20,597 bases of DNA from a virus. Lineage: Duplodnaviria; Heunggongvirae; Uroviricota; Caudoviricetes. The notes beneath the pieces are model-generated. The model was not told where the DNA came from. It saw only the letters and a list, made by a program, of their open reading frames with translations, and did not search any database. Location: IMG/VR virus record IMGVR_UViG_2534681697_000013; one strand, given 5' to 3'. Positions 1 through 19,600 of the stretch are shown here, one piece after another. Position numbers and translations under genes: made by a program. Every line of letters begins with the position of its first letter. Position 1 is the first letter of the stretch.

Positions 1-291
1 TCCAGCCAGGGACTATTGAGTACGAACGCCATCGACTTACGCGTGCGCAGGCCGACGCACAGGAGCTGAAAAATGCCAGAGACTCCGCTGAAGTGGTGGA
101 AACCGCATTCTGTACTTTCGTGCTGTAGCGGATCGCAGGTGAAATTGCCAGTATTCTCGACGGGATCCCCCTGTCGGTGCAGCGGCGTTTTCCGGAACTG
201 GAAAACCGACATGTTGATTTCCTGAAACGGGATATCATCAAAGCCATGAACAAAGCAGCCGCGCTGGATGAACTGATACCGGGGTTGCTGA

Positions 292-317
<26 letters not shown>
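1..317 (+). pseudogene. nu1: Terminase small subunit gpNu1, 3' portion (5' end outside window), with in-frame TAG at 126..128
   Basis: Frame ending at TAA 315..317 reads [103 protein letters not shown], recognisably the lambda Nu1 C-terminus. Its 3' end overlaps the start of A as in lambda. Confidence 0.8.
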
Positions 318-3298
<2,981 letters not shown>

Positions 3299-3374
3299 AA
3301 CCCTTGCTGCGTCTGGAATGTCGTTTTCCATGCTTTTGATGACCGTTCATCACCCTTCCAGTTTTTCGCGGTTT

Positions 3375-3428
3375 TGTGTATTGCAATGTGTATTGCAAAT
3401 TGGCGATCGGGATGGGTGTGTATTGCAA
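3375..3428 (+). repeat. Three direct copies of TGTGTATTGCAA (3375..3386, 3387..3398, 3417..3428); candidate integrase arm-type sites
   Basis: Exact 12-mers between the left junction and the int start; two more copies sit just inside the right junction. Confidence 0.55.
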
Positions 3429-3446
3429 ATCTCTTGAGGGCTTTTA

Positions 3447-4688
3447 ATGGCTATTGAAAACAAACTCAGTGACAAACTGTTAAAGAGTCTTGTCGGAAAA
3501 CGGCAGGACAAACAAAAAACAATAGCGGATGGGCGCGGGTTGTCTGTGCGTGTAAGCATGGTTGGGGGGATCAGCTTTGTTTTTTACTATCGTCTTGGTG
3601 GCAGGGAATCCCCTCCGGTATGGCTTACACTTGGTCGCTATCCTGACATGTCTCTTGCAACGGCCAGGCGCATGCGTGATCAGTGCCGTGAATGGCTGGC
3701 TGAAAATCTGGACCCCCGCAGGCAAATAAAACTTGCTGCCGAAAAAACTATGCAACCAGTGACCGTAAGGGATGCGCTGTTTTACTGGTACGACAATCAC
3801 GCCACAACAGCCAGAAAAGAGCATGAATATTTAATAAAACGATTTGAAAAGCATATCTTCCCCTATATCGGTGATATGGCTATAGAACAGTGCAAATTAC
3901 ACACATGGCTTACCGTCTTTGACAGGATCAAAAAAAATGCGCCTGTTATGTCTGGTGCAATTTTTCTTGATATCAAACAGGCGTTGCGTTTTTGTCGCGT
4001 CAGGCAATACATCGCGTGCGATCCCTTTGGAGATATTAACGTAAGTTATGTCGGGCGCTCATCCGGTATAAGGGATCGCGTTCTTAATATCAATGAAACC
4101 GCTGATGTATGGTCTTATGCTTACGGTAATAATTTGCTAACTCTGTCATCAATATATAACCGAAGAATAATGGTTATCTGCTTGGTGTTTGGTTGCCGAC
4201 AGCAGGAGGCGAGGCTATCCACCTGGGACGAATGGGATTTAAAAAACTGGGTATGGACAGTCCCAAAAGAGCACAGCAAAAACAAGGAGGCTATAGTAAG
4301 GCCTGTTCCTGACGGAATAAAACAATGGATCGTTAATCTTTACGCAGAAACAAAAAATCGCGGTTATGTTGTCGGTTGTGCTTTGCAAAGGGCGACAATA
4401 ACAGGGGCTGCAAACAGAATATGCAGGCGTCTTGGTCATGATACTAATGGCTTGTGGTGCATACATGATTTCAGGCGCACATTTTCCACTACGCTTAATG
4501 ATATGGGGGCGGATCCTTATATTGTCGAACTTCTTTTAGGTCATAAAGTGAAAGGGGTTGCTGGTGTTTACAATAAAAGCAGGCATATAAAGAAAAAACT
4601 TGAGGTGCTTAATATGTGGGTTAATTACCTTAATACGATAGCAGGATTTAACAACAACGTTATCGAGCTTAATAAAGAGGTGGTGTGA
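3447..4688 (+). CDS. int: Tyrosine recombinase / integrase (P4-type), 413 aa
   Basis: ORF with upstream GAGGG; C-terminal HDFRRTF...LLGHK...GVAGVYNKS is the tyrosine recombinase catalytic region. AT-richer than the flanking lambda genes. Confidence 0.92.
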   Translation: MAIENKLSDKLLKSLVGKRQDKQKTIADGRGLSVRVSMVGGISFVFYYRLGGRESPPVWLTLGRYPDMSLATARRMRDQCREWLAENLDPRRQIKLAAEKTMQPVTVRDALFYWYDNHATTARKEHEYLIKRFEKHIFPYIGDMAIEQCKLHTWLTVFDRIKKNAPVMSGAIFLDIKQALRFCRVRQYIACDPFGDINVSYVGRSSGIRDRVLNINETADVWSYAYGNNLLTLSSIYNRRIMVICLVFGCRQQEARLSTWDEWDLKNWVWTVPKEHSKNKEAIVRPVPDGIKQWIVNLYAETKNRGYVVGCALQRATITGAANRICRRLGHDTNGLWCIHDFRRTFSTTLNDMGADPYIVELLLGHKVKGVAGVYNKSRHIKKKLEVLNMWVNYLNTIAGFNNNVIELNKEVV

Positions 4689-4689
4689 T

Positions 4690-4947
4690 ATGGCAATTTA
4701 TTCTCTTGTTGATGAAAACGATTTGCGCACAATGAAGGACATTGATCGGTTCATTCGTGAAAAAGAGTGCATAGCACTTACCACGCTGGCAAACTCAACA
4801 CGCTGGAAAATGGAGCAGGCAGGTAAATTCCCGCGACGTATCAAGATCGGTGAACGTGCTGCAGGGTATCGACTTTCAGAGGTTCAGGCATGGATCCGTG
4901 GTGAGTGGCATCCTGGATGGAAACCTGGAAAAACAAAACAGCAATAA
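4690..4947 (+). CDS. alpA: AlpA-family wHTH regulator / excisionase-like protein, 85 aa
   Basis: Starts 2 nt after int stop; motif IALTTLANSTRWKMEQAGKFPRRIKIGERAAGYRLSEVQAWI matches the AlpA family. Confidence 0.8.
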   Translation: MAIYSLVDENDLRTMKDIDRFIREKECIALTTLANSTRWKMEQAGKFPRRIKIGERAAGYRLSEVQAWIRGEWHPGWKPGKTKQQ

Positions 4948-4960
4948 CCAGTAAATAATG

Positions 4961-4983
4961 CCCCTCATCACGAGGGGTTTTTT
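4961..4983 (+). terminator. Intrinsic terminator after alpA
   Basis: Stem CCCCTC / GAGGGG with loop ATCAC, followed by TTTTTT. Confidence 0.7.
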
Positions 4984-5003
4984 GTCTATAAGGTAAAAAC
5001 GCG

Positions 5004-5582
5004 ATGAATAAAAATATTGCCGTGACGGGCAAGGGGTACGCTCGTCCAGTGAAAAAATTCTGCGATATTCGTGATCTCGTCGTTCTGCGCTTTGATAGTG
5101 TGAACGTTCGTGTGGTGTATCTGAACGGCGATCCGTGGTTTGTTGCAAAAGATGTTTGTGCTGCGCTGGAACTAACCAATTCGCGTACGGCGTTGCAGAT
5201 GCTTGATGATGATGAAAAGGGAGTAAATTTAACTTACACCCCAGGAGGAAATCAGAATATGAGAATTATCTCTGAGTCAGGTTTCTACAAACTAATAGCC
5301 CGCAGCCGCAAAGCAACGACGCCTGGCACATTTGCTCATCGTTTCAGTAACTGGGTATTCAGAAATGTGATACCAGGTATCAGAAAAACGGGGACTTATG
5401 GTATCCCGTGGGGTGCATTACAGGATTTTTCCCGCCGTAAAGAGCAATATCAAATAAGTGCCAGCGAGAAGGGGAGGGAGCTACAGGCATGTAAGCGCAA
5501 AAAGCGTGAGCTGGAGGAAGAAGAAAAAACGCTGATACGTGAATATCAGCCTGAGTTTTACTTTGGTAACCGCATTCAGTGA
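5004..5582 (+). CDS. Bro-N domain protein (antirepressor-like), 192 aa
   Basis: N-terminus VVYLNGDPWFVAKDVCAALELTNSRTALQMLDDDEKG...GGNQNMRIISESGFYKLIARSRKA matches the Bro-N family; C-terminus is a charged coiled-coil-like tail. Confidence 0.78.
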   Translation: MNKNIAVTGKGYARPVKKFCDIRDLVVLRFDSVNVRVVYLNGDPWFVAKDVCAALELTNSRTALQMLDDDEKGVNLTYTPGGNQNMRIISESGFYKLIARSRKATTPGTFAHRFSNWVFRNVIPGIRKTGTYGIPWGALQDFSRRKEQYQISASEKGRELQACKRKKRELEEEEKTLIREYQPEFYFGNRIQ

Positions 5583-5591
5583 CAAAACAAA

Positions 5592-5612
5592 GGCGACCGC
5601 AAAAGGGTCGCC
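5592..5612. terminator. Hairpin between convergent genes (possible bidirectional terminator)
   Basis: Stem GGCGACC / GGTCGCC, loop GCAAAAG. T-rich tract only on the minus-strand side; none on the plus side. Confidence 0.5.
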
Positions 5613-5678
5613 AGTGGGAACAAGGGAAAACAAAAGCATCACCAACAATGCCACATTTGCGGCTGGTGGGCAATGTGA

Positions 5679-5858
5679 TCAGTCAGATTTGGTTCGTTCC
5701 AAGGTTTGCAACGAGAGCTTTTTCCTGTGCTCTTTAAGGAATTTCTCAAGAGCAAACGAACAAGGTGCGAATCTTTCTGATTCATGTTCATGCGCTATAT
5801 TTTTGCGTCGTCTCTTACGAGTTGGTGATGGTGTTTTGGTTGATTCTGTGTCGCTCAT
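5679..5858 (-). CDS. Small basic hypothetical protein, 59 aa (below the ORF-track size cutoff)
   Basis: Minus ATG at 5858 to TGA at 5679 encodes MSDTESTKTPSPTRKRRRKNIAHEHESERFAPCSFALEKFLKEHRKKLSLQTLERTKSD; weak AGGA upstream; directly downstream of the 101-aa minus ORF. Confidence 0.3.
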   Translation of the reverse strand: MSDTESTKTPSPTRKRRRKNIAHEHESERFAPCSFALEKFLKEHRKKLSLQTLERTKSD

Positions 5859-5915
5859 GGTGCTGTCCTGTAAAGCAATGCGCCTGCGTTCCTCAAACTA
5901 TGGCGCTGATATTGG

Positions 5916-6221
5916 CTATTCATGCTCTTTGACCTTGCGTCGCTGGAGTTCTTCACGCGCGACGGTGACGAGTTGCCCGATCTCCTCGGCTGCTTTGATG
6001 CCGATTTGTTCGACCTTAGCCAGGGCATCCAGTGACGACACAAGGGGATTTTCTCCGCTGCCTTCTGCTTGGCGGCGGGCTATTTCTCCGCGCATGGCGG
6101 TTACGATAAATCCGGCATTGCTTTCACCGTCCAGCTTAACGGATTCCATCCCTTGCATAACATCTAGTGGGACTCTGACAGTTGTCAGTTGTGATTTTGC
6201 GTTTTTGTTAGCCGTTGCCAT
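5916..6221 (-). CDS. Hypothetical protein, 101 aa; possible ribbon-helix-helix-type regulator
   Basis: AGGAG 8 nt upstream of ATG; N-terminal QLTTVRVPLDVMQGMESVK resembles a beta-strand plus helix start. Transcribed divergently from the operator region. Function is inferred. Confidence 0.5.
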   Translation of the reverse strand: MATANKNAKSQLTTVRVPLDVMQGMESVKLDGESNAGFIVTAMRGEIARRQAEGSGENPLVSSLDALAKVEQIGIKAAEEIGQLVTVAREELQRRKVKEHE

Positions 6222-6242
6222 TTCTGAAACTCCTAATCATCG

Positions 6243-6320
6243 GTGTGTTTCAGTATACACAAAAAAAGAAATACAAAAAGCCTTGACGTGTGTTTCATGC
6301 GCTCATAACATGAAACACAC
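6243..6320. promoter_or_regulatory. Divergent promoter region with operator-like repeats (candidate genetic switch)
   Basis: Plus strand: TTGACG (6283..6288), 17 bp, TAACAT (6306..6311). Perfect 12-bp inverted repeat GTGTGTTTCATG (6288..6299) / CATGAAACACAC (6309..6320), plus a third half-site GTGTGTTTCA at 6243..6252 over a minus-strand TATACT -10 candidate (6252..6257). Confidence 0.5.
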
Positions 6321-6348
6321 CGAAAGGATTGTTGAAATACAAAGAGCA

Positions 6349-6382
6349 ACGCCCCGCAGTGCTGGGAACACATACGGGGCGT
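6349..6382 (+). other. Stem-loop in the 5' leader of the rightward operon
   Basis: 8-bp stem ACGCCCCG / CGGGGCGT with an 18-nt loop, no T tract after it; lies between the promoter and the first ORF. Confidence 0.35.
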
Positions 6383-6411
6383 CTAACCAACAACGTAAAC
6401 TAGGAGCCGTT

Positions 6412-6609
6412 ATGGTTGCTGTAAATCATATACCACACCTTGTACACACACAAACGGCCTTTGTGTGGCGTTTTCTGGCACTGAGTGCCGGAGAATCTCA
6501 AATCATCCACGTAACCGCCTGGACGGAACGCGAAGCGCGTAGCCGTTGCCCGTCCGGTTGTGTTGCTGTATTCGCTGCAAAAATCCGCCAGGGAGTGAGT
6601 CATGCTTAA
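6412..6609 (+). CDS. Hypothetical small protein, 65 aa
   Basis: AGGAG 5 nt upstream of ATG 6412; stop overlaps the next ORF start at 6602. It is the C-terminal frame of the otherwise implausible track ORF 5539..6609. Confidence 0.4.
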   Translation: MVAVNHIPHLVHTQTAFVWRFLALSAGESQIIHVTAWTEREARSRCPSGCVAVFAAKIRQGVSHA

Positions 6610-6787
6610 AACCTTCCGTGTATTTGCCCGAGCTGTTAACCCAATAGGCCACACAATTGGTATCGCTCAGAATGTGAAGGCTGTTAATGTTCAGACGGCT
6701 ATTGCTGCGGTGAGAAGCGAATCATCAGAATATGGCTTATCACAAGTCATTATTTCAGCAGTGTATGAATTAAAAGAGGTGCATTAA
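6602..6787 (+). CDS. Hypothetical protein, 61 aa
   Basis: GGAGTGAG upstream of ATG; overlapping, translationally coupled operon layout. Confidence 0.45.
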   Translation: MLKTFRVFARAVNPIGHTIGIAQNVKAVNVQTAIAAVRSESSEYGLSQVIISAVYELKEVH

Positions 6788-6978
6788 TGCAGGAAATTAC
6801 ATTACACGAAGCCGCTGAACGTGCGCACCAGACAGAAATTATTTGCCGCCTTCTTGAGGTATACCCGAACAAAATTACAGATGCTGATATATCCGCACTG
6901 GCGAGCCTACTGGCGCGTCTTTCGGGAAGTGTCGCTAGTTTTTTGATTGAGGAAGAAAGTAAGCTGGTGGGGGATTAA
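6787..6978 (+). CDS. Hypothetical protein, 63 aa
   Basis: AGAGGTG upstream of ATG; start overlaps the preceding ORF end. Confidence 0.45.
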   Translation: MQEITLHEAAERAHQTEIICRLLEVYPNKITDADISALASLLARLSGSVASFLIEEESKLVGD

Positions 6979-7200
6979 ATGAATACAGAACGGGAAGTCT
7001 TTTTTAAATTGTTAGCATGTGCAGAAAGTTCATTAACTTTAAATAATTCAGCAAAAGCAATATTAAATATGTGGCTTGATTGCATAAATGACAATGAAGA
7101 TGCAAATATTGCTTATGGCCTGTTGTCACTTATTGATGAATCAGCAGAAAAACTCAATGACGCAATAAATAGTGCCCTGCTATCAAATAAGTCGAGTTAA
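6979..7200 (+). CDS. Hypothetical protein, 73 aa (AT-rich gene)
   Basis: Starts right after the previous stop with GGGGGA upstream; markedly lower GC than its neighbours. Confidence 0.5.
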   Translation: MNTEREVFFKLLACAESSLTLNNSAKAILNMWLDCINDNEDANIAYGLLSLIDESAEKLNDAINSALLSNKSS

Positions 7201-7217
7201 GTCGAGGAATAAATAAT

Positions 7218-7517
7218 ATGGAAATGAAAAATTCTGGCTTTATTGCCAGCGGCCCCGCTCGACCTGAATTTATGAACGGCGATATTTACCGCGATAAATA
7301 CGGCGGCACGGTAACGATTAAAGGCGTGGCAGAACGGCGCATCACTTACCGCCGTGAGGGGTATAGCTATGACTGCGTGATGCCTGTTTATCAGTTCCGG
7401 CGTGATTTTTCCCTGGTATATGCCGCACCCCGCAGTAAGCCCATCAGCAGGGAAAAAGCGTGGGGAAATATCCAGAAAATGAAAACCATGATTAACGGAT
7501 TCAGAGGTAAAAAATGA
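7218..7517 (+). CDS. Hypothetical protein, 99 aa
   Basis: GAGGAA upstream of ATG; stop overlaps the primase start. Confidence 0.55.
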   Translation: MEMKNSGFIASGPARPEFMNGDIYRDKYGGTVTIKGVAERRITYRREGYSYDCVMPVYQFRRDFSLVYAAPRSKPISREKAWGNIQKMKTMINGFRGKK

Positions 7518-9268
7518 AACTGGCACCGAACGTAAAACAGCAGTCACGCGGCATAAAACACAAAGGAACAGAAGTAATTATTTTTGCGGGTAGTGATGCC
7601 TGGGCACACGCGAAACAATGGCAGGAACATGATGCGCGTATGGCCGGAGATAATGAGCCTCCTGTGTGGCTTGGGGAGCAGCAGCTATCCGAACTGGATA
7701 ATCTGCAAATTGTGCCGGAAGGCCGAAAATCAGCACGCATATACAGGGCCGGATATCTTGCGCCTGTAATGATAAAGGCGATTGGTCAGAAGCTGGCGGC
7801 AGCAGGCGTACAGGATGCAAATTTTTATCCTGAGGGTATGCACGGCCAGGAGGTGCAGAACTGGCGCGAATATCTGGCCCGTGAACGCCAGAATCTTTCT
7901 GATGGTCTGGTCATTGAGCTTCCGGTAAAGCAAAAGGCGCAACTTTCGCAGATGGCGGACAGTGAGCGCGCGCAGTTGCTTGCCGATCGCTTTGATGGCG
8001 TTTGCGTACATCCTGAAAGTGAAATCGTTCACGTATGGCGCGGCGGGGTATGGTGTCCGGTCAGCACAATGGAACTTAGCCGCGAAATGGTGGCGATCTA
8101 TTCAGAGCACAGGGCCACTTTCAGCAAGCGCGTAATCAATAACGCCGTGGAAGCGTTAAAAGTTATTGCCGAACCAATGGGCGAGCCGTCTGGCGATTTG
8201 CTGCCGTTCGCCAATGGTGCGCTTGACCTGAAAACGGGGGAATTTTCCCCGCACACGCCGGAGAACTGGATCACCACGCACAACGGCATTGAGTACACGC
8301 CACCAGCACCAGGGGAGAACATCCGCGATAACGCGCCAAACTTTCATAAATGGCTTGAGCACGCAGCCGGAAAAGACCCGCGCAAGATGATGCGTATATG
8401 TGCCGCGCTGTACATGATTATGGCGAACCGGTACGACTGGCAGATGTTTATTGAGGCCACCGGAGACGGCGGGAGCGGTAAAAGTACATTCACACACATA
8501 GCCAGCCTTCTGGCAGGGAAACAGAACACGGTAAGCGCTGAAATGACATCGCTTGATGATGCTGGTGGACGTGCGCAGGTTGTCGGGAGTCGTCTTATCG
8601 TCCTGGCTGACCAGCCGAAATATACAGGCGAAGGAACGGGCATCAAGAAAATCACAGGCGGCGACCCCGTGGAAATTAACCCGAAATATGAAAAGCGTTT
8701 CACGGCGGTAATCAGGGCGGTGGTGCTGGCGACCAACAACAACCCGATGATATTCACCGAACGGGCCGGAGGTGTGGCACGTCGTCGCGTGATTTTCCGT
8801 TTCGACAATATCGTCAGTGAGGCCGAAAAAGACAGGGAGCTACCGGAAAAGATTGCGGCTGAAATCCCCGTTATTATCCGCCGATTGCTGGCGAACTTTA
8901 CCGACCCTGAGAAGGCACGGGCTTTACTACTGGAACAGCGTGACGGTGATGAAGCACTGGCAATAAAGCAACAGACGGATCCGGTTATTGAGTTTTGCCA
9001 GTTCCTGAATTTTCTGGAGGAAGCGCGCGGCCTGATGATGGGTGGCGGTGGTGATTCAGTGAAGTACACGACCAGGAACAGCCTTTACCGCGTCTATCTG
9101 GCGTTTATGGCATACGCGGGCAGGAGCAAACCGCTAAACGTGGCTGAGTTCAGCAAGGCCATGAAGCCAGCGGCGAAAGTTTACGGGCATGAATATATTA
9201 CGCGAAAAGTTAAGGGAGTAACGCAGACCAACGCAATTACAACAGACGATTGCGACGCGTTTTTATAA
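7514..9268 (+). CDS. Primase-helicase (P4 alpha-type), 584 aa
   Basis: Walker A GDGGSGKST and downstream helicase-like region; last gene of the small-ORF operon and followed directly by iterons. Confidence 0.88.
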   Translation: MKLAPNVKQQSRGIKHKGTEVIIFAGSDAWAHAKQWQEHDARMAGDNEPPVWLGEQQLSELDNLQIVPEGRKSARIYRAGYLAPVMIKAIGQKLAAAGVQDANFYPEGMHGQEVQNWREYLARERQNLSDGLVIELPVKQKAQLSQMADSERAQLLADRFDGVCVHPESEIVHVWRGGVWCPVSTMELSREMVAIYSEHRATFSKRVINNAVEALKVIAEPMGEPSGDLLPFANGALDLKTGEFSPHTPENWITTHNGIEYTPPAPGENIRDNAPNFHKWLEHAAGKDPRKMMRICAALYMIMANRYDWQMFIEATGDGGSGKSTFTHIASLLAGKQNTVSAEMTSLDDAGGRAQVVGSRLIVLADQPKYTGEGTGIKKITGGDPVEINPKYEKRFTAVIRAVVLATNNNPMIFTERAGGVARRRVIFRFDNIVSEAEKDRELPEKIAAEIPVIIRRLLANFTDPEKARALLLEQRDGDEALAIKQQTDPVIEFCQFLNFLEEARGLMMGGGGDSVKYTTRNSLYRVYLAFMAYAGRSKPLNVAEFSKAMKPAAKVYGHEYITRKVKGVTQTNAITTDDCDAFL

Positions 9269-9281
9269 TTTTTTGTAAAAG

Positions 9282-9503
9282 CCATCTACCCCATCTACCT
9301 GAACGAAATAAACGCATATTATTCAACATGATAAGTGGGTATAGGGCTAGGTAGAAGGCTAATAAAAGCTCTCTACCTCTTCTACCTGATTTTATCAGTT
9401 TCAGGTAGCAGGGTAGACGGCAGGTAGAGGAGTCAAAAAAGCTATCTACCCGCTGAAAGCGGCGCCATTACTGACATGATGAGCATTCGGGTAGATGGGT
9501 AGA
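9282..9503. repeat. Iteron cluster with AT-rich core; candidate replication origin
   Basis: (C)CATCTACC-type repeats on the plus strand at 9284, 9293, 9371, 9381, 9444 and inverted GGTAGA copies at 9350, 9404, 9412, 9423, 9490, 9498; terminal blocks CCATCTACCCCATCTACC and GGGTAGATGGGTAGAGG mirror each other; AT-rich stretch around 9300..9345. Confidence 0.6.
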
Positions 9504-9553
9504 GGGGGGGAGGCACAACTAAAAACTTTTTAAACGAGGGGGGGTGAAAATAA

Positions 9554-9868
9554 ATGCGCATACATAAAAATCACTTAACAAACATGCCAGCCGAAAACAT
9601 GAATCAGGGGCGACAAATGACCAAAATTCGCAGAGACAGAACACAGGCAAAATATAAAGCGTTAGACATGACAGAGCTTTCCTTAAAGGTGGCAATCAAA
9701 GCGATAGACCACCACACACGGGCAGGATACGCGAAGGAACATCCCGACCTGATAAGCGCATTCATGACCACAGCAGCGGCAAACTTTGCCACGCTGACAG
9801 AACGGGAGATTGCCGAAGCGGAACAGGTGACAACCATCAATGTTAAAACCGGAGAGCAGACAGCATGA
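9554..9868 (+). CDS. Hypothetical protein, 104 aa (true start may be a downstream Met)
   Basis: ORF after a G-rich Shine-Dalgarno-like tract; stop overlaps the SSB-like gene start (ATGA). Confidence 0.5.
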   Translation: MRIHKNHLTNMPAENMNQGRQMTKIRRDRTQAKYKALDMTELSLKVAIKAIDHHTRAGYAKEHPDLISAFMTTAAANFATLTEREIAEAEQVTTINVKTGEQTA

Positions 9869-10287
9869 CAGCACAGATAGCGGCTTACGGGCGGCTGGTG
9901 GCTGACCCGCAGTTAAAGACCACCAGCAAAGGGACACAAATGGCGATGGCGAGTATGGCGGTTCCCCTGCCGTGCAGCCAGGCAGATGACGGAACGGCGA
10001 CGATGTGGTTATCCGTCCTGGCGTTTGGCAGACAGGCCGACGCACTGGCAAAACACCACAAAGGCGAACTGGTGAGCGTGGCGGGTAACATGCAGGTAAG
10101 CCAGTGGACAGGCCAGAACGGCGAAACGCGGCGGGGCTGGCAGGTTATCGCAGACAGCGTAATCAGTGCGCGAACGGCGCGACCGGGCGGCAAAAAAGGC
10201 CAGCAGGGGCAGGCCACTGACGCACTGAACAGGGCAAAACAACAGTCGGGGAATGATGATCCGTACGGCGATAATATACCGTTTTAA
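9865..10287 (+). CDS. ssb: Single-stranded DNA-binding protein-like, 140 aa
   Basis: OB-fold-like core WLSVLAFGRQADALAKHHKGELVSVAGNMQVSQWTGQNGETRRGWQVIADSV, Gly/Gln-rich linker and a C-terminal ...DDPYGDNIPF tail resembling the SSB DDDIPF tip. Confidence 0.7.
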   Translation: MTAQIAAYGRLVADPQLKTTSKGTQMAMASMAVPLPCSQADDGTATMWLSVLAFGRQADALAKHHKGELVSVAGNMQVSQWTGQNGETRRGWQVIADSVISARTARPGGKKGQQGQATDALNRAKQQSGNDDPYGDNIPF

Positions 10288-10304
10288 ATTCTGCAAACAA
10301 AAAG

Positions 10305-10333
10305 ATGCCGGAAAAAAATAGATTTTCCGGCAT
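10305..10333. terminator. Strong hairpin after the SSB-like gene (putative terminator)
   Basis: Perfect 11-bp stem ATGCCGGAAAA / TTTTCCGGCAT with a 7-nt loop; no clear T tract after it, so terminator function is uncertain. Confidence 0.4.
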
Positions 10334-10498
10334 GCTACATAAATCCCGACCAAAGGAAGTAAATACATTAACACGAATTATCAGCACTGAAGTTGTTACG
10401 GCATATTTTATACAACATTGCACTTGGTTGCATGTGTTCGCATAGCAGACATCGGTAATAGAATATATTCACAATTATTTGTAATGAATGTAAAGAGG

Positions 10499-11545
10499 AT
10501 GAGTATGGTTGATTTATATTCGCCTACACAGCTTGTGCAGGTGGCTAATGCTGAAGATGTGCAAAAAAATTAAATGCGTTGTTTACCAGTTTGTTTTTCA
10601 CTCGCTCGGTAATGTTTGAATCGAGAGACATTATTCTTGATACGATCGACGATCCAAATATCCCGATCGCGGCGTTTTGCTCTCCTATGGTGGGCAGTAA
10701 AGTTTCACGAGATGAGGGATACGAATCAAAAACAATTCGTCCAGGTTATATGAAGCCGAAAAGCAGCATTGATCCAAATAAGTTAGCTGTGCAGCCCTGC
10801 TGGTGTGTCACCTGAGCAATACAATGCTTTTGGGGCGCGTAATATTAAAGTTAAACAGGCGATTGTAAATCAGGCTAAAGCTATTCGTGCACGTATTGAA
10901 TGGCTTGCTGTTCAGGCAATCACAACGGGGAAAAATATCATTGAGGGCGATGGTATTGAACGTTATGAGCTGGACTGGAATATAAAACCACAAAATATCA
11001 TCACTCAGTCTGGCGGTACTGAGTGGTCAGGTAAGGATAAAGAAACTTTTGATCCAAATGATGATATTGAGAGCTACGCAGAATTTAGTGAGGGCGTCAC
11101 TAATATCATCATTATGGGTGGTAATGTATGGAAGAAATACCGTTCATTCAGAGCGATAAAAGAGGCTTTGGATACCCGTCGTGGTTCTAATTCCGAACTG
11201 GAAACGGCCCTTAAAGACCTTGGTGATTCGGTGAGTTTTAAAGGGTATATGGGCGATGTTGCGATTGTTGTTTACAGCGGGCGTTATACCGACGAGGACG
11301 GAACAGAAAAACATTTCCTTGATCCTGATTTGATGGTGCTTGGCAATACGGCTCTTCAGGGGATTGTCGCCTATGGCGGTATTCAGGATCCGGAGCTAAT
11401 CCGAATGGGGCTGACTAAAGCCGAACTTGCACCGAAAAACTATATTGTGCCTGGTGATCCGGCTATTGAATATGTGCAGACACATTCAGCACCACAGCCA
11501 ATACCGGCCCGCATCAATCGTTTTGTTACCGTTCGCATTGGCTAA
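10499..11545 (+). pseudogene. Major capsid protein gene (lambda gpE-like), disrupted by two frameshifts
   Basis: Three consecutive frames each align with successive parts of gpE. First: MSMVDLYSPTQLVQVANAEDVQKN*, stopping at 10571. Second, to 10815: KKLNALFTSLFFTRSV...PGYMKPKSSIDPNKLAVQP. Third, 10805..11545: ...ITQSGGTEWSGKDKETFDPNDDIESY...DTRRGSNSELETALKDLG...GDVAIVVYSG.... The breaks sit in an A7 run (10563..10569) and a CCC run (10795..10797). Confidence 0.75.
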
Positions 11546-11554
11546 GGGGGAGCA

Positions 11555-11896
11555 ATGGCTACTCATTACACTGAACTCATGGCTGGCACTGAAGCACTGG
11601 TGACTACGCTGGGGATATTTTCAGCTAATAAAGGGGTAATTCCTGCATTTACGCCACTGATGCAGGAAGATGCAACAGGTGCACTGGTGGTATGGGATGG
11701 TTCGAGCGTAGGTAAAGCGGTTTATGTTTCCGCTGTACAAATCGACACCGCGAAAAAAACACAGGCTCAGGTCTATAAGACAGGTGTCTTAAATGTTGAT
11801 GCTCTGAACTGGCCTGAGTCTGTTAAAGAACTGTCAGTAAAGGTTGCAGCGTTTGTTGGCTCAGGTATTTCTGTTCAGCCGCTGGCTCGTGTGTAA
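11555..11896 (+). CDS. Head decoration protein (lambda gpD-like), 113 aa, apparently intact
   Basis: AAGGGGGA upstream of ATG. LVVWDGSSVGKAVYVSAV, VYKTGVLNVDALNWPE and AAFVGSGISV parallel the gpD motifs [34 protein letters not shown] and [10 protein letters not shown]. Confidence 0.72.
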   Translation: MATHYTELMAGTEALVTTLGIFSANKGVIPAFTPLMQEDATGALVVWDGSSVGKAVYVSAVQIDTAKKTQAQVYKTGVLNVDALNWPESVKELSVKVAAFVGSGISVQPLARV

Positions 11897-11907
11897 AGGG
11901 GGATACA

Positions 11908-12291
11908 ATGCAGAATGATTACAATGACCTTAAGCCAATTGCCGAAATGATGTACCCGAATCCAGCTGTAGAGGAATTAAAAGCTATCGCTGACAAAATG
12001 TGTTTAAGCGAGCGCCTTGTTGATATGAATCAGGTGATGGAAATTACAACCCTGAGTCGTCGTACACTGCTAAACCTTGAGGCTAGTGGAGAGTTCCCGG
12101 AGCGTGTGCAGGTTACGGAAGGGCGTAAGGCCTGGTATTTAAGTGAAGTGATCGACTGGATAAATAATATTCCTCGCGCTTCTGAATATTGCCGCGTACC
12201 TGTCCCAAAAAAGCCAGATGCGGCGCTATGCCTCAAGATTGAGCGTGTACGCCGCAATGCACGGGATGGTCGCTATAAGCTGATTGGTTGA
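11908..12291 (+). CDS. AlpA/MerR-type wHTH DNA-binding protein, 127 aa
   Basis: AGGGGGA upstream of ATG; motif MNQVMEITTLSRRTLLNLEASGEFPERVQVTEGRKAWYLSEVIDWI matches the AlpA family. Sits between the decoration gene and cos. Confidence 0.6.
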   Translation: MQNDYNDLKPIAEMMYPNPAVEELKAIADKMCLSERLVDMNQVMEITTLSRRTLLNLEASGEFPERVQVTEGRKAWYLSEVIDWINNIPRASEYCRVPVPKKPDAALCLKIERVRRNARDGRYKLIG

Positions 12292-12343
12292 TGAAATTAG
12301 GGCCCGCTCTGGCTGGCGGGTCCTTTCCGGTGATCCGGTAGGC

Positions 12344-12381
12344 TACGGGGCGGCGACCTCGCGGGTTTTCGCTATTTATGA
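12344..12381. other. cos site: lambda-type cosN (cohesive-end 12-mer GGGCGGCGACCT at 12348..12359)
   Basis: TACGGGGCGGCGACCTCGCGGGTTTTCGCTATTTATGA matches the lambda cosN region; downstream sequence up to the small terminase gene differs from lambda cosB. Confidence 0.75.
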
Positions 12382-12492
12382 GCCTTTTTCGGGTGCTGGT
12401 GGTGGTTTTGTTGTTCGCTCTATCTCTATGAATAAAAAGGAAAAGATAAAGCCAATACACCAACCTGAAACATTACTTAAGTGGGGATATTG

Positions 12493-13035
12493 ATGAAATC
12501 GCACCTGATGAACAAAAAAAACATGGCGCAAAGCTGCCGTGTAAGTGCGACAGCGTTCGACAAGTGGGGAGTGACTCCCGTTGAACGTAAAGGCCGCGAG
12601 GCGTTTTATGATGTTGCCAGCGTAATAGACAATCGGGTTAGCAATGCAATTAACCAGATTACAGACGACAAAGGCGAGATTGATGATGATGAACTCCTAC
12701 GAGTCAGGATCAGATTGCTGACAGCACAGGCAGAGGCGCAGGAGCTTAAAAACGAGCGCGAACGCGGCGACGTTATTGATACAGCGTTTTGTATATACGT
12801 GCTTTCAAAATTGGCGAGTCAGATTTCTTCAATCATGGACAGCCTGCCGCTTGCCATGACAAGGAAGTTTCCCGACATGAAGCCGTCTATGCTGGATGGA
12901 CTGAAAAAAGAAGTTATCAGAGCCTGTAACGCATGCGCAAAACTTGACGAAAACATACCGCTGATGCTGTCCGATTATCTGATGGAAACTGCCGGAAACG
13001 TACCGGATAAGTTGCAGCCGAATAAAGATAAGTAA
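12493..13035 (+). CDS. Terminase small subunit homologue (Nu1-like), about 180 aa; start could instead be 12481 (GTG) or 12508 (ATG)
   Basis: LLTAQAEAQELKNERERGDVIDTAFCIYVLSKLASQISSIMDSLPLAMTRKFPDMKPSMLDGLKKEVIRACNACAKLDENIPLMLSDYL parallels the Nu1 C-terminal half in this window; N-terminus MNKKNMAQ... parallels Nu1 MEVNKKQLA...; immediately downstream of cos. Confidence 0.8.
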   Translation: MKSHLMNKKNMAQSCRVSATAFDKWGVTPVERKGREAFYDVASVIDNRVSNAINQITDDKGEIDDDELLRVRIRLLTAQAEAQELKNERERGDVIDTAFCIYVLSKLASQISSIMDSLPLAMTRKFPDMKPSMLDGLKKEVIRACNACAKLDENIPLMLSDYLMETAGNVPDKLQPNKDK

Positions 13036-13046
13036 CGTAGTACGCT

Positions 13047-13328
13047 ATGACTGAATCCGAAATACTGCGATTAATCCGCCGTGCTTGTGGAATCAGCAAG
13101 CAGCATGACGAACAGGCCACGCAGCCGGACAGCGTGACCGCAGATAATTATGTGCGTGTAGTGGCTGAGGTGATGCGCCGTGACGGTATTGAGCTTAACG
13201 GCGTGGATATGCGCAACATACGAACAAGAGTCCTTGAGTTGCTGGCATATCGTCGCCGTTCTCAACAACGGAGGGAGAGCGCGAAAAATACTTACCAGTG
13301 GAAGAAGCCGGAACGATTGCGGCGGTAA
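13047..13328 (+). CDS. Hypothetical protein, 93 aa
   Basis: ORF 12 nt after the small terminase stop; no strong Shine-Dalgarno; function unknown. Confidence 0.45.
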   Translation: MTESEILRLIRRACGISKQHDEQATQPDSVTADNYVRVVAEVMRRDGIELNGVDMRNIRTRVLELLAYRRRSQQRRESAKNTYQWKKPERLRR

Positions 13329-13579
13329 CTTGCTGATATTCCCGATAACGCAAAATTGCGCTGGCTGACTTGTTGCATTGCAAAAAGTTAAGCAGGAAGG
13401 CACGGCCTGTAAGATGGGATGCAGTAAGTAGTTCAAGGCTACCTTGTGCTGGCACGCACAGTTAAGCCGTCGGTGCTGGATATCCCCCACTGGGGGAAAA
13501 GCTGGCTACATCCCTCACATCTGAGGACTGATAACGCGACATTGCGCTGGCTGGCAAAGTGCAAAATTGCACGATGGCC

Positions 13580-13726
13580 TAACCCATTGATTATTTCGAA
13601 AACCTGCAATGCAGGAAATCGGGGAAGTAAGCCTAAGCTATTGATTGTTTCGAAAACCCCCATTGGGGGATGTCGGGAAAGTAAGACTAACCCATTGATT
13701 CTTCCACAATCCTCAATTTGAGGAGG
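13580..13726. repeat. Tandem direct repeats of about 54 bp (2.5 copies), each with a short inverted repeat
   Basis: Units begin TAACCCATTGATTATTTCGAAAACC, TAAGCTATTGATTGTTTCGAAAACC and TAACCCATTGATTCTTCC; each contains a small palindrome (CTGCAATGCAG, CCCCCATTGGGGG, CCTCAATTTGAGG) and ends GG(G)AAGTAAG(C/A)C. Confidence 0.55.
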
Positions 13727-14041
13727 CCGGAACGTCTACATAGCTGCATCGCCGTAATGATGATTCAGCCCACCAGCCAAATCAGCACAGCAACGACAGA
13801 ATAGCCCGACACAGAAAAACCACGAATATGGGGTTTTTGTTATGACATGGTCATGATGACCACTCATACAAAACAGGTAAAGCCCACCAGCCTGATTAAA
13901 GGTTAACCGGAAAAAAGCCAGGTATCCAATCTCGATATGGGGATCCCTATATCGACATTAACGCCCACTAAAACTGTGCATATATGCATAGAAAAAGCAT
14001 CCACCAGCTTTATGACGGATGCCGCTCATCTTATAAATAAT

Positions 14042-14065
14042 CGTGTATTGCAGTGTGTATTGCGA
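14042..14065 (+). repeat. Two direct copies of (C/T)GTGTATTGC(A/G) (14042..14052, 14054..14065); candidate arm-type sites at the right end
   Basis: Same motif and orientation as the three copies upstream of int. Confidence 0.5.
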
Positions 14066-14137
14066 CTCCTTTAAACGATAGGTCTGAGCATTCGTAATGT
14101 ACTGTTTTTAAATTTTATTTTTTCCTGTCTTTTCATA

Positions 14138-14145
14138 AAGGCGAT
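14138..14145. other. Right junction core (attR-like) AAGGCGAT
   Basis: Direct repeat of 3239..3246; portal-like sequence resumes in frame immediately after. Confidence 0.6.
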
Positions 14146-14917
14146 GTATGCCGCCACCATTGAGAGTGAGCTGGATACGCAGTCAGCGATGGATTTTATT
14201 CTGGGCGCGAACAGTAAGGAGCAGCGGGACAAGCTGACCGGCTGGATTGGTGAAATTGCCGCGTATTACGCCGCAGCACCGGTCCGTCTGGGAGGCGCAA
14301 AAGTGCCGCACCTGATGCCGGGGGACTCACTGAACCTGCAGACGGCTCAGGACACGGATAACGGCTACTCCGTGTTTGAGCAGTCACTGTTGCGGTATAT
14401 CGCTGCCGGGCTGGGTGTCTCGTATGAGCAGCTTTCCCGGAATTACGCCCAGATGAGCTACTCCACGGCACGGGCCAGTGCGAACGAGTCGTGGGCGTAC
14501 TTTATGGGGCGGCGAAAATTCGTCGCATCCCGTCAGGCGAGCCAGATGTTTCTGTGCTGGCTGGAAGAGGCCATCGTTCGCCGCGTGGTGACGTTACCTT
14601 CAAAAGCGCGTTTCAGCTTTCAGGAAGCCCGCAGCGCCTGGGGGAACTGTGACTGGATAGGCTCCGGTCGTATGGCCATCGATGGTCTGAAAGAAGTACA
14701 GGAAGCGGTGATGCTGATAGAAGCCGGACTGAGTACCTACGAGAAAGAGTGCGCAAAACGCGGTGACGACTATCAGGAAATTTTTGCCCAGCAGGTCCGT
14801 GAAACGATGGAGCGCCGTGCAGCCGGTCTTAAACCGCCCGCCTGGGCGGCTGCGGCATTTGAATCCGGACTGCGACAATCAACAGAGGAGGAGAAGAGTG
14901 ACAGCAGAGCTGCGTAA
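14138..14917 (+). pseudogene. B: Portal protein gpB, C-terminal part (portal reading frame resumes at 14146)
   Basis: Translation (KA)MYAATIESELDTQSAMDFILGANSKEQRDKLTGWIGEIAAYY...GLRQSTEEEKSDSRAA* is the portal C-terminus; the last 20 nt overlap the GTG start of C. Confidence 0.9.
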
Positions 14918-16217
14918 TCTCCCGCATATTGCCAGCATGGCTTTTAATGAGCCGCTGATGCTTGAACCCGCCTATGCGCGGGTTTTCTTTTGTGCGCTTG
15001 CAGGCCAGCTTGGGATCAGCCGCCTGACGGATGCGGTGTCCGGTGACAGCCTGACTGCCGGAGAGGCACCCGCGACGCTGGCGTTATCCGTTAATGATGA
15101 CGGACCACGACAGGCCCGCAGTTATCAGGTCATGAACGGCATCGCCGTGCTGCCGGTTTCCGGCACGCTGGTCAGCCGGACGCGGGCGCTGCAGCCGTAT
15201 TCGGGGATGACCGGTTACAACGGCATTATCGCCCGTCTGCAACAGGCTGCCAGCGACCCGATGGTGGACGGCATTCTGCTGGATATGGACACGCCCGGCG
15301 GAATGGTGGCAGGGGCATTTGACTGCGCTGACATCATCGCCCGTGTGCGTGACATAAAGCCGGTATGGGCGCTGGCCAATGACATGAACTGCAGCGCAGG
15401 TCAGCTGCTTGCCAGTGCCGCCTCCCGGCGTCTGGTCACGCAGACCGCCCGGACAGGCTCCATCGGCGTCATGATGGCTCACAGTAATTACGGTGCTGCG
15501 CTGGAGAAACAGGGCGTGGAAATCACGCTGATTTACAGCGGCAGCCATAAGGTGGATGGCAACCCCTACAGCCATCTACCGGATGATGTCCGGGAAACAC
15601 TGCAGTCCCGGATGGATGCAACCCGCCGGATGTTTGCACAGAAGGTGTCGGCATATACCGGCCTGTCCGTGCAGGCTGTGCTGGATACCGAGGCTGCAGT
15701 GTACAGCGGTCAGGAGGCCATTGATGCCGGACTGGCTGATGAACTTGTTAACAGTACCGATGCGATCACCGTCATGCGTGATGCACTGGATGCACGTAAA
15801 TCCCGTCTCTCAGGAGGGCGAATGACCAAAGAGACTCAATCAACAACTGTTTCAGCCACTGCTTCGCAGGCTGACGTTACTGGCGTGGTGCAAGCGACGG
15901 AGGGCGAGAACGCCAGCGCTGCGCAGCCGGACGTGAACGCGCAGATCACCGCAGCGGTTGCGGCAGAAAACAGTCGCATTATGGGGATCCTCAACTGTGA
16001 GGAGGCTCACGGACGCGAAGAACAGGCACGCGTGCTGGCCGAAACCCCTGGTATGACCGTGGAAACGGCCCGCCGCATTCTGGCAGCTGCACCACAGAGT
16101 GCACAGGCGCGCAGTGACACTGCGCTGGATCGTCTGATGCAGGGGGCACCGGCACCGCTGGCTGCAGGTAACCCGGCATCTGATGCCGTTAACGATTTGC
16201 TGAACACACCAGTGTAA
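14898..16217 (+). CDS. C: Head protease / scaffold protein (lambda gpC-like), 439 aa, GTG start
   Basis: VTAELRNLPHIASMAFNEPLMLEPAYARVFF...NDLLNTPV*. The track ORF 14763..16217 extends upstream only because of an in-frame upstream start. Confidence 0.94.
   Translation: MTAELRNLPHIASMAFNEPLMLEPAYARVFFCALAGQLGISRLTDAVSGDSLTAGEAPATLALSVNDDGPRQARSYQVMNGIAVLPVSGTLVSRTRALQPYSGMTGYNGIIARLQQAASDPMVDGILLDMDTPGGMVAGAFDCADIIARVRDIKPVWALANDMNCSAGQLLASAASRRLVTQTARTGSIGVMMAHSNYGAALEKQGVEITLIYSGSHKVDGNPYSHLPDDVRETLQSRMDATRRMFAQKVSAYTGLSVQAVLDTEAAVYSGQEAIDAGLADELVNSTDAITVMRDALDARKSRLSGGRMTKETQSTTVSATASQADVTGVVQATEGENASAAQPDVNAQITAAVAAENSRIMGILNCEEAHGREEQARVLAETPGMTVETARRILAAAPQSAQARSDTALDRLMQGAPAPLAAGNPASDAVNDLLNTPV
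15612..16217 (+). CDS. nu3: Scaffold protein gpNu3 (in-frame internal start within C), 201 aa
   Basis: ATG at 15612 in the C frame gives a 606-nt ORF, the nested arrangement known from lambda; no independent sequence evidence beyond position. Confidence 0.7.
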   Translation: MDATRRMFAQKVSAYTGLSVQAVLDTEAAVYSGQEAIDAGLADELVNSTDAITVMRDALDARKSRLSGGRMTKETQSTTVSATASQADVTGVVQATEGENASAAQPDVNAQITAAVAAENSRIMGILNCEEAHGREEQARVLAETPGMTVETARRILAAAPQSAQARSDTALDRLMQGAPAPLAAGNPASDAVNDLLNTPV

Positions 16218-16226
16218 GGGATGTTT

Positions 16227-16471
16227 ATGACGAGCAAAGAAACCTTTACCCATTACCAGCCGCTGGGCAACAGTGACCCGGCTCATACCGCAACCGCGCC
16301 CGGCGGATTGAGTGCGAAAGCGCCTGCAATGACCCCGCTGATGCCGGACACCTCCACCCGTTCTACAAGTCCGGCACGTTCCGTTATGAGGATGTGCTCT
16401 GGCCGGAGGCTGCCAGCGATGAGACGAAAAAACGGACCGCGTTTGCCGGAACGGCAATCAGCATCCTTTAA
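16227..16471 (+). pseudogene. D: Head decoration protein gpD, frameshifted by an internal deletion
   Basis: N-terminal frame reads [43 protein letters not shown] then nonsense; the C-terminal segment [36 protein letters not shown] is in a different frame, from 16361. The locus is about 88 nt shorter than a 333-nt D gene. Confidence 0.75.
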
Positions 16472-17634: not shown

Positions 17635-19098
17635 TTATTTTACAGACGAGAAGTTCCAGGGCAGCAGTTCATGCACTTGGTTCGACGGCCAGTCATTGAG
17701 CTTCTCGATCACTTCGCGCAACCAGTCCTCCGGCTCCACTTCGTTCTGTTTGCAGGTGACCAGCAGACTGTAGATGATCGCCGCACTTTCTCCTCCCTTG
17801 TCTGAGCCGAAAAAGAGATAATTTTTTCTTCCAACCGCCACCGATCGTAACGCGTTTTCACCGATGTTGTTGTCTATTTCCACCCAGCCGTCACGACAGA
17901 ACTCGTTCAGCGCATTCCAGTGATTCAGGATATAGTCGAACGCCTTCGCCATCTCCGCATGTTTCGACAGCGTTTCCCTCTGCAACTGTATCCAGTCGTA
18001 CAACGACTGCATCAACTGGACGCTTCTGGCTTTTCTGACTGCAAGCCGTTCCTCTGCCGGACTGCCACGTATCTCCGCTTCTATGTCGTATAACTCTGCT
18101 ATCCGTCTGAGCGCTTCCTGAGTCATTTCTGTCGGACGGCGCACATCCTCGTCATGGATTTTTCGGCGGGCGTGGGCCAGGCACCCGGCTTCCTTCACCC
18201 GGCCCGTTTCGTACAGTACGTTATAACCTGCATAGGCATCAGCCTGCAGTACGCCCTGATACTTTGCCAGGTGGAGCTGCGGATGTTCTCCTTTGCGATC
18301 TGCCGAATACGCGAACCAGACGGCTGCCGGCAGGGATGAACCCGCATTACGATCATCCCTGACGTATACCCACAGACGACCCGTTTTCGTCTTTCCGTTC
18401 CCCGGGGCCAGTACTTTCACCGGAGTGTCATCTGCGTGCACCTTTCCTGCCTCCAGAACATAGTCATTCAGCGCTATATACAGAGGACGGAGTTTGTCTG
18501 CCATTTCTGATACCCAGCGCACCATGGTATTACGGCTCAGCTCCACGACCTGTCGCGCGTATATTTCTGACTGGCGATATAAAGGGATATGTTCCATATA
18601 TTTGCTGACCAGGATCCGTGCAAGTAACCCTGCACTGGCATAACCGCGTTCGATCGGTTTAGGGGGAAGTGGTGCCTGAACGATGACATCACACCGGCTA
18701 CAGGCCAGTTTGGGACGTATGGTTTCGATAACTTTAAAGGCGGTATTAATGATATCCAGTTGCTCTGAGATTGTTTCCCCCATTTCTTTCAGAACACCTC
18801 CACAGGCCGGGCAACTGGTTTCAGCAGGCAGAAGGCGATGTGTCTCCCGGGGAAGTTCTGCCGGCAGCGGTTTTCGTGAAGATTTTCGTCCCGGGGATTC
18901 AGGCTTACTGGCGATCGGGTTTTCTGACGGGGGACTGGTGTCAGGTGAATCTGTGACTGACGATGCATCTTCCAGAAGATTTCTGGCTGTGTTCAGCCGG
19001 TTTTCCAGTTCCGACAGTCGTTTTTCTGCCTGTCGGATCTGATTTTCAAGCTTATGACGCTTTTTCTCTGAACTCTGGCCGAACAGCATACGACGCAA
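17635..19098 (-). CDS. tnpC: IS66-family transposase TnpC, 487 aa as an uninterrupted ORF
   Basis: ...[29 protein letters not shown]..., with Cys-rich CPACGG and CSRCD motifs. The expected N-terminal about 30 codons ([31 protein letters not shown]) lie in another frame upstream. Confidence 0.88.
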
Positions 19099-19252: not shown

Positions 19253-19600
19253 TTATATCCGGATGCCAGGCCGTTCTGTCCGTTTGGGATGTTGCCACGC
19301 GATCCCCTCCAGTAGCATGGATAACTGAGCTGGCGTCAGGTGCACTTTCCCTTCCCGGGTCACCGGCCAGACGAAGCGGCCCCGTTCCAGGCGTTTGGCG
19401 AACAGGCATAACCCGTCACGATCGGCCCACAGTATTTTCACCATTTTGCCACTACGGCCCCGGAAGACGAAGATATGCCCGGAGAACGGGTCATCTTTCA
19501 GCGTGTTCTGCACCTTCGAAGCCAGGCCATTGAAGCCACAACGCATATCTGTGATGCCAGCGATGATCCAGATTTTGGTACCGGTCGGCAGCGTTATCAT
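19253..19600 (-). CDS. tnpB: IS66-family TnpB (Orf2), 115 aa
   Basis: ...GHIFVFRGRSGKMVKILWADRDGLCLFAKRLERGRFVWP...LTPAQLSMLLEGIAWQ... is the IS66 Orf2 pattern. Confidence 0.88.
   Translation of the reverse strand: MITLPTGTKIWIIAGITDMRCGFNGLASKVQNTLKDDPFSGHIFVFRGRSGKMVKILWADRDGLCLFAKRLERGRFVWPVTREGKVHLTPAQLSMLLEGIAWQHPKRTERPGIRI

Follow-up and report, generated by a model that had tools for sequence, protein, structure and literature searches.

The analysed window, a stretch of 20,597 nt, includes part of a lambdoid prophage whose portal gene is split by a satellite island (Table 1). From the left, its genes encode a lambda-type terminase, the N-terminal part of the portal protein, an integrase, an HTH/AlpA-type protein, a Bro-N protein, small ORFs, a DUF4222 protein and a helicase, after which there is a gap. 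Beyond the gap are a small ORF and the genes of SSB, a capsid-E-like protein, a gpD-like protein, an AlpA-family protein, a Nu1-like protein, the remainder of the portal protein, a protease and the major capsid protein. The island genes and the portal gene all lie on the plus strand. The N-terminal portal piece ends at position 242 of the Pfam profile and the C-terminal piece starts at position 238. Strain EC93, with 99.4% identity to window positions 1..16361, has the same insert, on either side of which its annotation shows a partial portal gene. The island possesses the features by which Gram-negative PICI elements are recognized (i.e., int, AlpA and pri-rep genes running in one direction, a length of ~10.9 kb, att sites, a cos site and no tail or lysis genes). 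Helper-embedded PICIs are islands inserted in lambdoid late genes at sites that include B:Phage_portal_2:241, and they carry their own primase and origin (PMC10111431, NAR Genom Bioinform 2023). Like them, this element has its int, AlpA and primase-family genes co-oriented within a lambdoid late gene, with the portal split at ~238-242; it is a helper-embedded PICI in the portal gene of a lambdoid prophage, at or very near B:Phage_portal_2:241. The origin of such elements was not dissected in PMC10111431. The TGTGTATTGCAA(A/T) repeats near both ends of the island are probably arm-type binding sites of the integrase.

Table 1. Positions in the window of the satellite, its genes and the parts of the iteron array.
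Feature	Position	Strand	Remarks
Portal gene halves	2417..3298 and 14144..14917	+	Split at Pfam Phage_portal_2 ~238-242
Whole satellite, ~10.9 kb, helper-embedded PICI	3239..14151	+	att cores, split portal gene
attL core	3239-3252		AAGGCGAT(T/G)TATG; from comparison with the intact portal gene
Arm-type repeats TGTGTATTGCAA(A/T)	3375..3430 and ~14043..14067		Three copies upstream of int, one or two near attR
Integrase (int)	3447..4688	+	Island gene
HTH/AlpA-type gene	4690..4947	+	Island gene
Pri-Rep, SF3 (D5/P4-alpha type) helicase-initiator, 584 aa	7514..9268	+	Pfam D5_N, DUF5906, Pox_D5
Putative iteron-binding C-terminal winged-helix domain, aa 488-576	8975..9241	+	phmmer match to PDB 1KA8
Non-coding gap holding the origin, 285 nt	9269..9553		Without ORF of at least 50 aa; the EcCICFT073 gap has the same iterons
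Left terminal iteron doublet	9285..9299	+	TCTACC at 9285 and 9294, 9 bp apart; invariant in eight variants
Main AT-rich spacer, 38 nt	9300..9337		Least stable duplex of the origin; candidate melting site
Reverse iterons	9338..9355	-	Degenerate TATACC at 9338, exact TCTACC at 9350
Central forward iteron doublet	9372..9386	+	Sites 9372 and 9381
Central AT-rich spacer, 17 nt	9387..9403		Holds the dyad centre, ~9394-9395
Central reverse iterons	9404..9428	-	Degenerate GCTACC at 9404, exact sites at 9412 and 9423
Single forward iteron	9445..9450	+	Exact TCTACC
GC-rich spacer	9451..9489		Between the single forward iteron and the right doublet
Conserved non-iteron block CTGAAAGCGGCGCCATTACTGAC	9453..9477		GCGCCATTACTG invariant in eight E. 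coli/Shigella variants
Right terminal iteron doublet	9490..9503	-	Sites 9490 and 9498; mirrors the left doublet
104-aa ORF, no family	9554..9868	+	Directly after the origin gap; same order in EcCICFT073
SSB	9865..10287	+	Pfam SSB; same gene order in EcCICFT073
Capsid-E-like gene	10505..11545		Two single-base indels relative to the intact copy of EC93
AlpA-family gene	11908..12291	+	Island gene
Lambda-type cos GGGCGGCGACCTCGCGGGTTTT, exact	12348..12369		Between AlpA-family and Nu1-like genes; same as published EcCICFT073 cos.1
attR core	14138-14151		AAGGCGAT(T/G)TATG; from comparison with the intact portal gene

In the capsid-E-like gene, one base is deleted near 10562 and one is inserted at 10793, by which ~230 nt are out of frame and contain four stops; the gene is either a pseudogene or affected by two sequencing errors. 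In the last 0.8 kb of the island, a non-coding tail that precedes attR, there are three tandem 54-nt units (13579..13724), each of which ends in a short hairpin whose stem varies by paired changes (CCTGCAATGCAGG, CCCCCATTGGGGG and CCTCAATTTGAGG), as well as the repeat GATAACGCnAnATTGCGCTGGCTG at 13344 and 13530; no Rfam match was found for the repeats of this tail. Directly after the major capsid gene of the helper are an IS66-family transposase gene (17635..19098, minus strand) and an HTH transposase gene (19597..20271, minus strand), and the similarity between the window and EC93 stops at ~17603. The helper prophage may be defective in this strain.

The helicase gene that precedes the gap encodes Pri-Rep, whose helicase core (aa 190-432) matches the SaPI5 PriRep structure 7OLA (E = 4e-15) and whose residues 488-576 match the winged helix with which P4 alpha binds its origin (PDB 1KA8; phmmer, E = 8e-6). 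Over 433 aa, Pri-Rep is 40% identical to residues 324-756 of P4 alpha, and no similarity was found to P4 alpha residues 1-323. It is 97.8% identical to the Pri-Rep of EcCICFT073 and 98.1% identical to its counterpart in EcCIATCC25922, and a protein database search with it returned near-identical E. coli/Shigella sequences only. The preliminary description had called the protein a primase-helicase. No primase domain was found in it, residues 1-150 being without significant Pfam, NCBIfam or PDB match; the primase label comes from the P4-family model TIGR01613, which covers aa 229-495, i.e., the helicase part. These N-terminal 150 residues (7514..7963) are also the most variable part of the protein, with 45% identity between variants whose cores are 97% identical, and contain the conserved motifs IIFAG.DAW and PPV.L. 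Because no primase domain was found, the priming step of this Rep is unexplained.

The helicase gene stops at 9268, the first iteron begins at 9285 and the ATG of the next ORF (9554..9868) is at 9554, while the start that PGAP assigned to this ORF in strain EC93 corresponds to 9617. The array at 9285..9503 is therefore inside the gap of 9269..9553, which agrees with its earlier placement between the stop of the presumed primase gene and the next gene. It is also non-coding, whereas a position of the repeats within a coding sequence would have told against an origin: no ORF of at least 50 aa overlaps the array, in which ORFs of 30-39 aa are all that is found, and the indels of this region among relatives, like the changes of spacer length among the eight variants described below, are not multiples of three in length. 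Rfam searches of the whole window gave no family at the gathering threshold, and the gap gave only a chance match to a miRNA (E = 0.9).

The window contains 11 copies of the hexamer TCTACC, 10 of which fall within the 219 nt of 9285..9503, five on each strand. From dinucleotide shuffles ~5.1 copies are expected per window and ~0.055 per 219 nt, and the Poisson probability of at least 10 copies in 219 nt is ~1e-19 (hand calculation with lambda from the shuffles). With two further sites on the minus strand that have one mismatch each, TATACC at 9338 and GCTACC at 9404, there are 12 sites in all, in line with the at least 11 copies in both orientations that had been reported for this DNA. The core common to the sites is TCTACC followed by C or T, and all 10 exact copies of the heptamer TCTACCY in the window are confined to 9285..9503. 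The octamer CATCTACC, which the preliminary description had given as the motif, occurs just three times. Searched with up to one mismatch, the satellite shows no second cluster of TCTACC(Y).

Together the 12 sites make up an imperfect dyad with its centre at ~9394 and the pattern >> AT < | >>. << | > .. <<, in which 10 of them are matched, to within 2 nt, by a mirrored site across the centre at 9394-9395. The mirrored terminal blocks noticed earlier were recovered, given that complementarity is 100% between the terminal arms 9282-9291 and 9489-9498 and 93% between 9290-9303 and 9486-9499. AT-rich DNA was recovered as well, and in two places: the least stable 25-mers, at 9301..9340, have an instability of the 97th-99th percentile among those of the window (25-nt nearest-neighbour calculation), and AT-rich DNA of low stability also surrounds the dyad centre at 9387..9403. 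By eye, a DnaA box, AGTGGATAA, was seen in the variants of CFT073 and ATCC 25922 and is absent from the window; since the window copy is without AGTGGATAA, the box was rejected as a shared feature of these origins.

Conservation was assessed with eight E. coli/Shigella variants that have diverged flanks and whose helicase and origin regions share 81-100% nucleotide identity. Invariant columns make up 55 of the 60 iteron columns vs 48 of the 164 other columns of the origin (Fisher p = 7e-18). The number (10-11), place and orientation of the TCTACC sites are kept in all eight, while the spacers diverge in sequence and length. Among 5,426 complete E. coli genomes, 562 carry at least 80% of a query that consisted of the 3' part of the helicase gene and the origin.

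EcCICFT073 and EcCIATCC25922 are named PICIs, listed in Table S1 of Fillol-Salom et al. (2018, ISME J; PMC6092414). The EcCICFT073 island (NC_004431, 1377749-1389210), the helicase of which is annotated as a DNA primase family protein, has 11 TCTACC sites in the gap 3' of pri-rep, in the same order and orientation as those in the window. According to the 2018 report, EcCICFT073 has an iteron/AT-rich origin immediately 3' of pri-rep, and a thermosensitive plasmid with its rep and putative ori allowed colonies to form at the restrictive temperature; the delta-rep plasmid gave none, while with the delta-ori plasmid the colony numbers were "significantly reduced", not abolished (PMC6092414). The origin in the window resembles the EcCICFT073 type in its position directly 3' of pri-rep, its TCTACC word in 10-11 copies of the same order and orientation and its AT-rich spacer, and the neighbouring genes are also those of EcCICFT073 and EcCIATCC25922 (DUF4222, pri-rep, ori, small ORF, ssb and capsid-like and decoration-like genes). 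The two differ in the sequences of the spacers, in the number of exact sites (11 in EcCICFT073 and 10 here) and in integrase and att site, as EcCICFT073 is located between ycfD and phoQ, whereas the window copy lies in the portal gene of a prophage. Because the Rep is 97.8% identical and the TCTACC sites have the same layout in EcCICFT073, we propose that 9285..9503 is very probably the vegetative origin of an EcCICFT073-type Gram-negative PICI embedded in a lambdoid portal gene, and this particular copy is presumably active. The origin proposed in the preliminary description is thus supported by the near-identical Rep, the same iterons and the published replication of the rep-ori plasmid.

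Relatives were collected by BLAST against E. coli genomes and by a scan of one genome per species, the latter of which gave 80 loci. In 56 relatives from Enterobacterales and Aeromonas, found by the scan or among the loci collected earlier, a word is repeated at least six times within 330 nt after the stop of the helicase gene. The words include TCTACC, TGTTCACC, GTATACC, GTGTTCA, GTCTAC, CCCTACC, GTCACT and GGACAG. Despite these different words, the layout >> AT < >>(>) <<(<) > .. << is common to many of the mapped loci, and the equivalent of the main spacer is AT-rich in most of them, with Symbiopectobacterium, one Rosenbergiella locus and the Aeromonas loci as exceptions. About one third of the distant loci, many of them from Xenorhabdus, lack a clear word within 330 nt. 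Searches of a phage collection gave no match at the nucleotide level; in protein mode they gave P4, vB_KppS-Ant, Pasteurella Pmp7/8 and Serratia Scapp. Pasteurella Pmp7 has no iteron cluster after its helicase gene, which is followed by an integrase gene. In vB_KppS-Ant (LR881103.1, L009), the Rep of which is 41% identical to Pri-Rep, the origin at 11690..11950 shows the same layout with 9-11 copies of a TGTTCACC-type word (9 GTTCAC and 11 GGTGAA), i.e., the type-1 word of P4. This 16.5-kb satellite was deposited as a phage and, judged from its gene content, appears to be cf-PICI-like.

Comparison of the words with the proteins points to the C-terminal domain. TCTACC is kept next to proteins whose N-terminal 150 aa are just 45% identical to those of Pri-Rep, next to proteins of ~790-800 aa with unrelated long N-termini, and at core identities down to 45-68% provided that C-terminal identity is 46% or higher. 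Among loci with ~64% core identity, C-termini that are 46-53% identical go with TCTACC and those that are 33-35% identical go with GTATACC or GTGTTCA; for instance, the Pri-Rep relative of an E. coli island, with a core that is 64% and a C-terminus that is 34% identical, is followed at the same place by GTATACC-type repeats and not by TCTACC. Among 1,123 locus pairs with core identity below 70%, which are not phylogenetically independent of each other, a shared word is predicted better by C-terminal identity (AUC 0.84) than by core identity (AUC 0.72), and 1% of the pairs with 30-40% C-terminal identity share a word. Two loci, L049 and L084, are exceptions, with GTCTACC despite 34-36% C-terminal identity. 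As a correlation across these sequences, the iteron word tracks the C-terminal domain and not the N-terminus or the helicase core. Given that residues 488-576 match 1KA8 and that the word changes with this domain, it is reasonable to infer that the iterons are bound by the C-terminal winged-helix domain of Pri-Rep. The correlation agrees with the reports on P4 alpha, the C-terminal winged-helix domain of which is described as recognising iterons, and on the SaPI Reps, described as self-loading helicases whose 6-12 iterons, directly after rep, are bound by a C-terminal winged-helix domain (PMC9371898).

Several other functions of the array have to be weighed against that of an origin. It might serve mainly in transcriptional control, as a set of operators at which Rep or another protein governs read-through into the SSB, capsid and packaging genes, or by which Rep regulates its own synthesis, and replication from it would then be a minor function or none. 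Iteron-binding plasmid initiators often autoregulate, and, since the genes on both sides of the array are co-oriented and belong to one transcription unit, RNA polymerase would run into protein bound there. Moreover, the block at 9453..9477 and a second conserved stretch, which precedes the next ORF in the eight-variant comparison, suggest that the gap has further functions. However, consensus scans of 8900..10000 revealed no sigma-70 promoter or terminator consensus, and published origins are organised in the same way, as a dyad with AT-rich DNA that follows an SF3 initiator gene, an arrangement that is found here across many words. A predominantly regulatory array is very unlikely in our opinion, and a regulatory role would be compatible with origin function.

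The other functional possibility comes from P4, in which the cluster after the alpha gene (4291..4590 of X51522) carries the annotation crr, at a distance of ~4.5 kb from the annotated origin. By analogy, the array might be an accessory replication enhancer that is bound by Rep in cis, with replication starting from another origin of the element. The resemblance to P4 is considerable: the helicase and the C-terminal winged-helix domain are homologous (40% identity over the 433 aa and the 1KA8 match given above), and both elements have iterons of 6-8 bp that end in ACC, occur in both orientations, include doublets 9 bp apart, as do the type-1 repeats of crr, and are clustered directly downstream of the initiator gene. 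The differences are that the type-1 word of P4 is TGTTCACC and that of the window is TCTACC(C/T), with no GTTCAC in the gap, and that alpha, with 777 aa, has an N-terminal primase region, which the 584-aa Pri-Rep lacks. P4 also depends on two clusters at a distance from each other, ori and crr. In the window, which includes the complete element, just one cluster is present; and in the replication experiments reported for EcCICFT073, rep and the adjacent ori segment alone sustained a plasmid (PMC6092414). An enhancer with the origin elsewhere is accordingly most improbable.

The probability of the remaining explanations is negligible. Short repeats are generally frequent in intergenic DNA, which is all that speaks for a degenerate tandem repeat or a recombination remnant, whereas 10 copies are seen instead of the ~0.055 expected, they keep their positions and orientations between diverged spacers, and distant relatives have the same layout with other words. 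Satellites also hold packaging sites (cos/pac) and integrase arm sites in non-coding DNA, but the lambda-type cos GGGCGGCGACCTCGCGGGTTTT is found elsewhere, at 12348..12369, and the end repeats at 3375-3430 and ~14043-14067 use a different word, TGTGTATTGCAA. Conservation, the location of cos and the word of the end repeats thus exclude the chance, packaging-site and arm-site readings.

As an origin, the array can be compared with two other kinds. Like SaPI origins, it adjoins the gene of an SF3 initiator-helicase with a C-terminal winged helix, its iterons lie immediately downstream of that gene, and it has an AT-rich centre and opposed iterons (PMC9371898). Sequence similarity to SaPIs is seen in the helicase core only (7OLA) and not in the origin, and the sole match detected for the C-terminal domain is that of P4, 1KA8. 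The SaPI hosts are Gram-positive, and PICIs of Gram-positive and Gram-negative bacteria are described as different lineages in the 2018 report (PMC6092414). With iteron plasmids of the RepA, pi and TrfA type, the array shares repeated initiator sites that adjoin an AT-rich unwinding region. Plasmid iterons are typically ~17-22 bp long and mostly direct repeats, and the initiators that bind them are not helicases and recruit the host DnaB, usually with DnaA boxes. The origin in the window differs from them by its words of 6-7 bp, its dyad layout and its probable recognition by the helicase itself.

Based on these comparisons, we propose that after induction the Pri-Rep of the island would be made, an SF3 hexameric helicase that doubles as initiator, and that its C-terminal winged helices would recognise the TCTACC(C/T) iterons. 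On the imperfect dyad, two Rep assemblies that face in opposite directions may flank AT-rich DNA, where double hexamers would presumably be loaded; melting would most likely take place at 9301..9340 and/or in the central spacer. The helicase may be self-loading and need no other loader, which is how the SaPI Reps are described (PMC9371898), and host or other priming functions together with the island SSB, which would coat the unwound strands, would start synthesis. More speculative, and in our estimation unlikely, is that the origin is functionally asymmetric, with the GC-rich block at 9453..9477 as a dedicated signal for priming or a host factor, and that its firing amplifies the packaging genes of the helper in cis before excision. 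Such a priming signal would explain how synthesis is started by a Rep without a recognisable primase domain, and amplification in cis is conceivable because the island lies inside the late operon of the helper.

This type of origin was already published and tested in 2018, and the origin reading is thus not new; the window contains one more copy of it in a published kind of satellite, which adds little. The analysis marks the cis site that the island would need for autonomous replication and indicates that the earlier deduction of an origin, which was made from sequence alone, was sound. What is added here is the dyad of 12 sites, the least stable DNA at 9301..9340, the reuse of the layout with other words, the tracking of the word with the C-terminus and the lack of a primase domain. 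The comparative results extend the known picture and may guide swaps of specificity among initiators of the PICI/P4 family. The conserved block at 9453..9477 and the missing primase domain are the only details that might repay more work. A related block of the form AAAGCC..GCCA-N2-4-TGG(C) is found in the same spacer of several distant TCTACC-type origins from Xenorhabdus, Symbiopectobacterium and Raoultella, and the Rosenbergiella origin contains a looser AAAGCC version of it. In the classes with other iteron words, AT-rich DNA is found at the place of this block.
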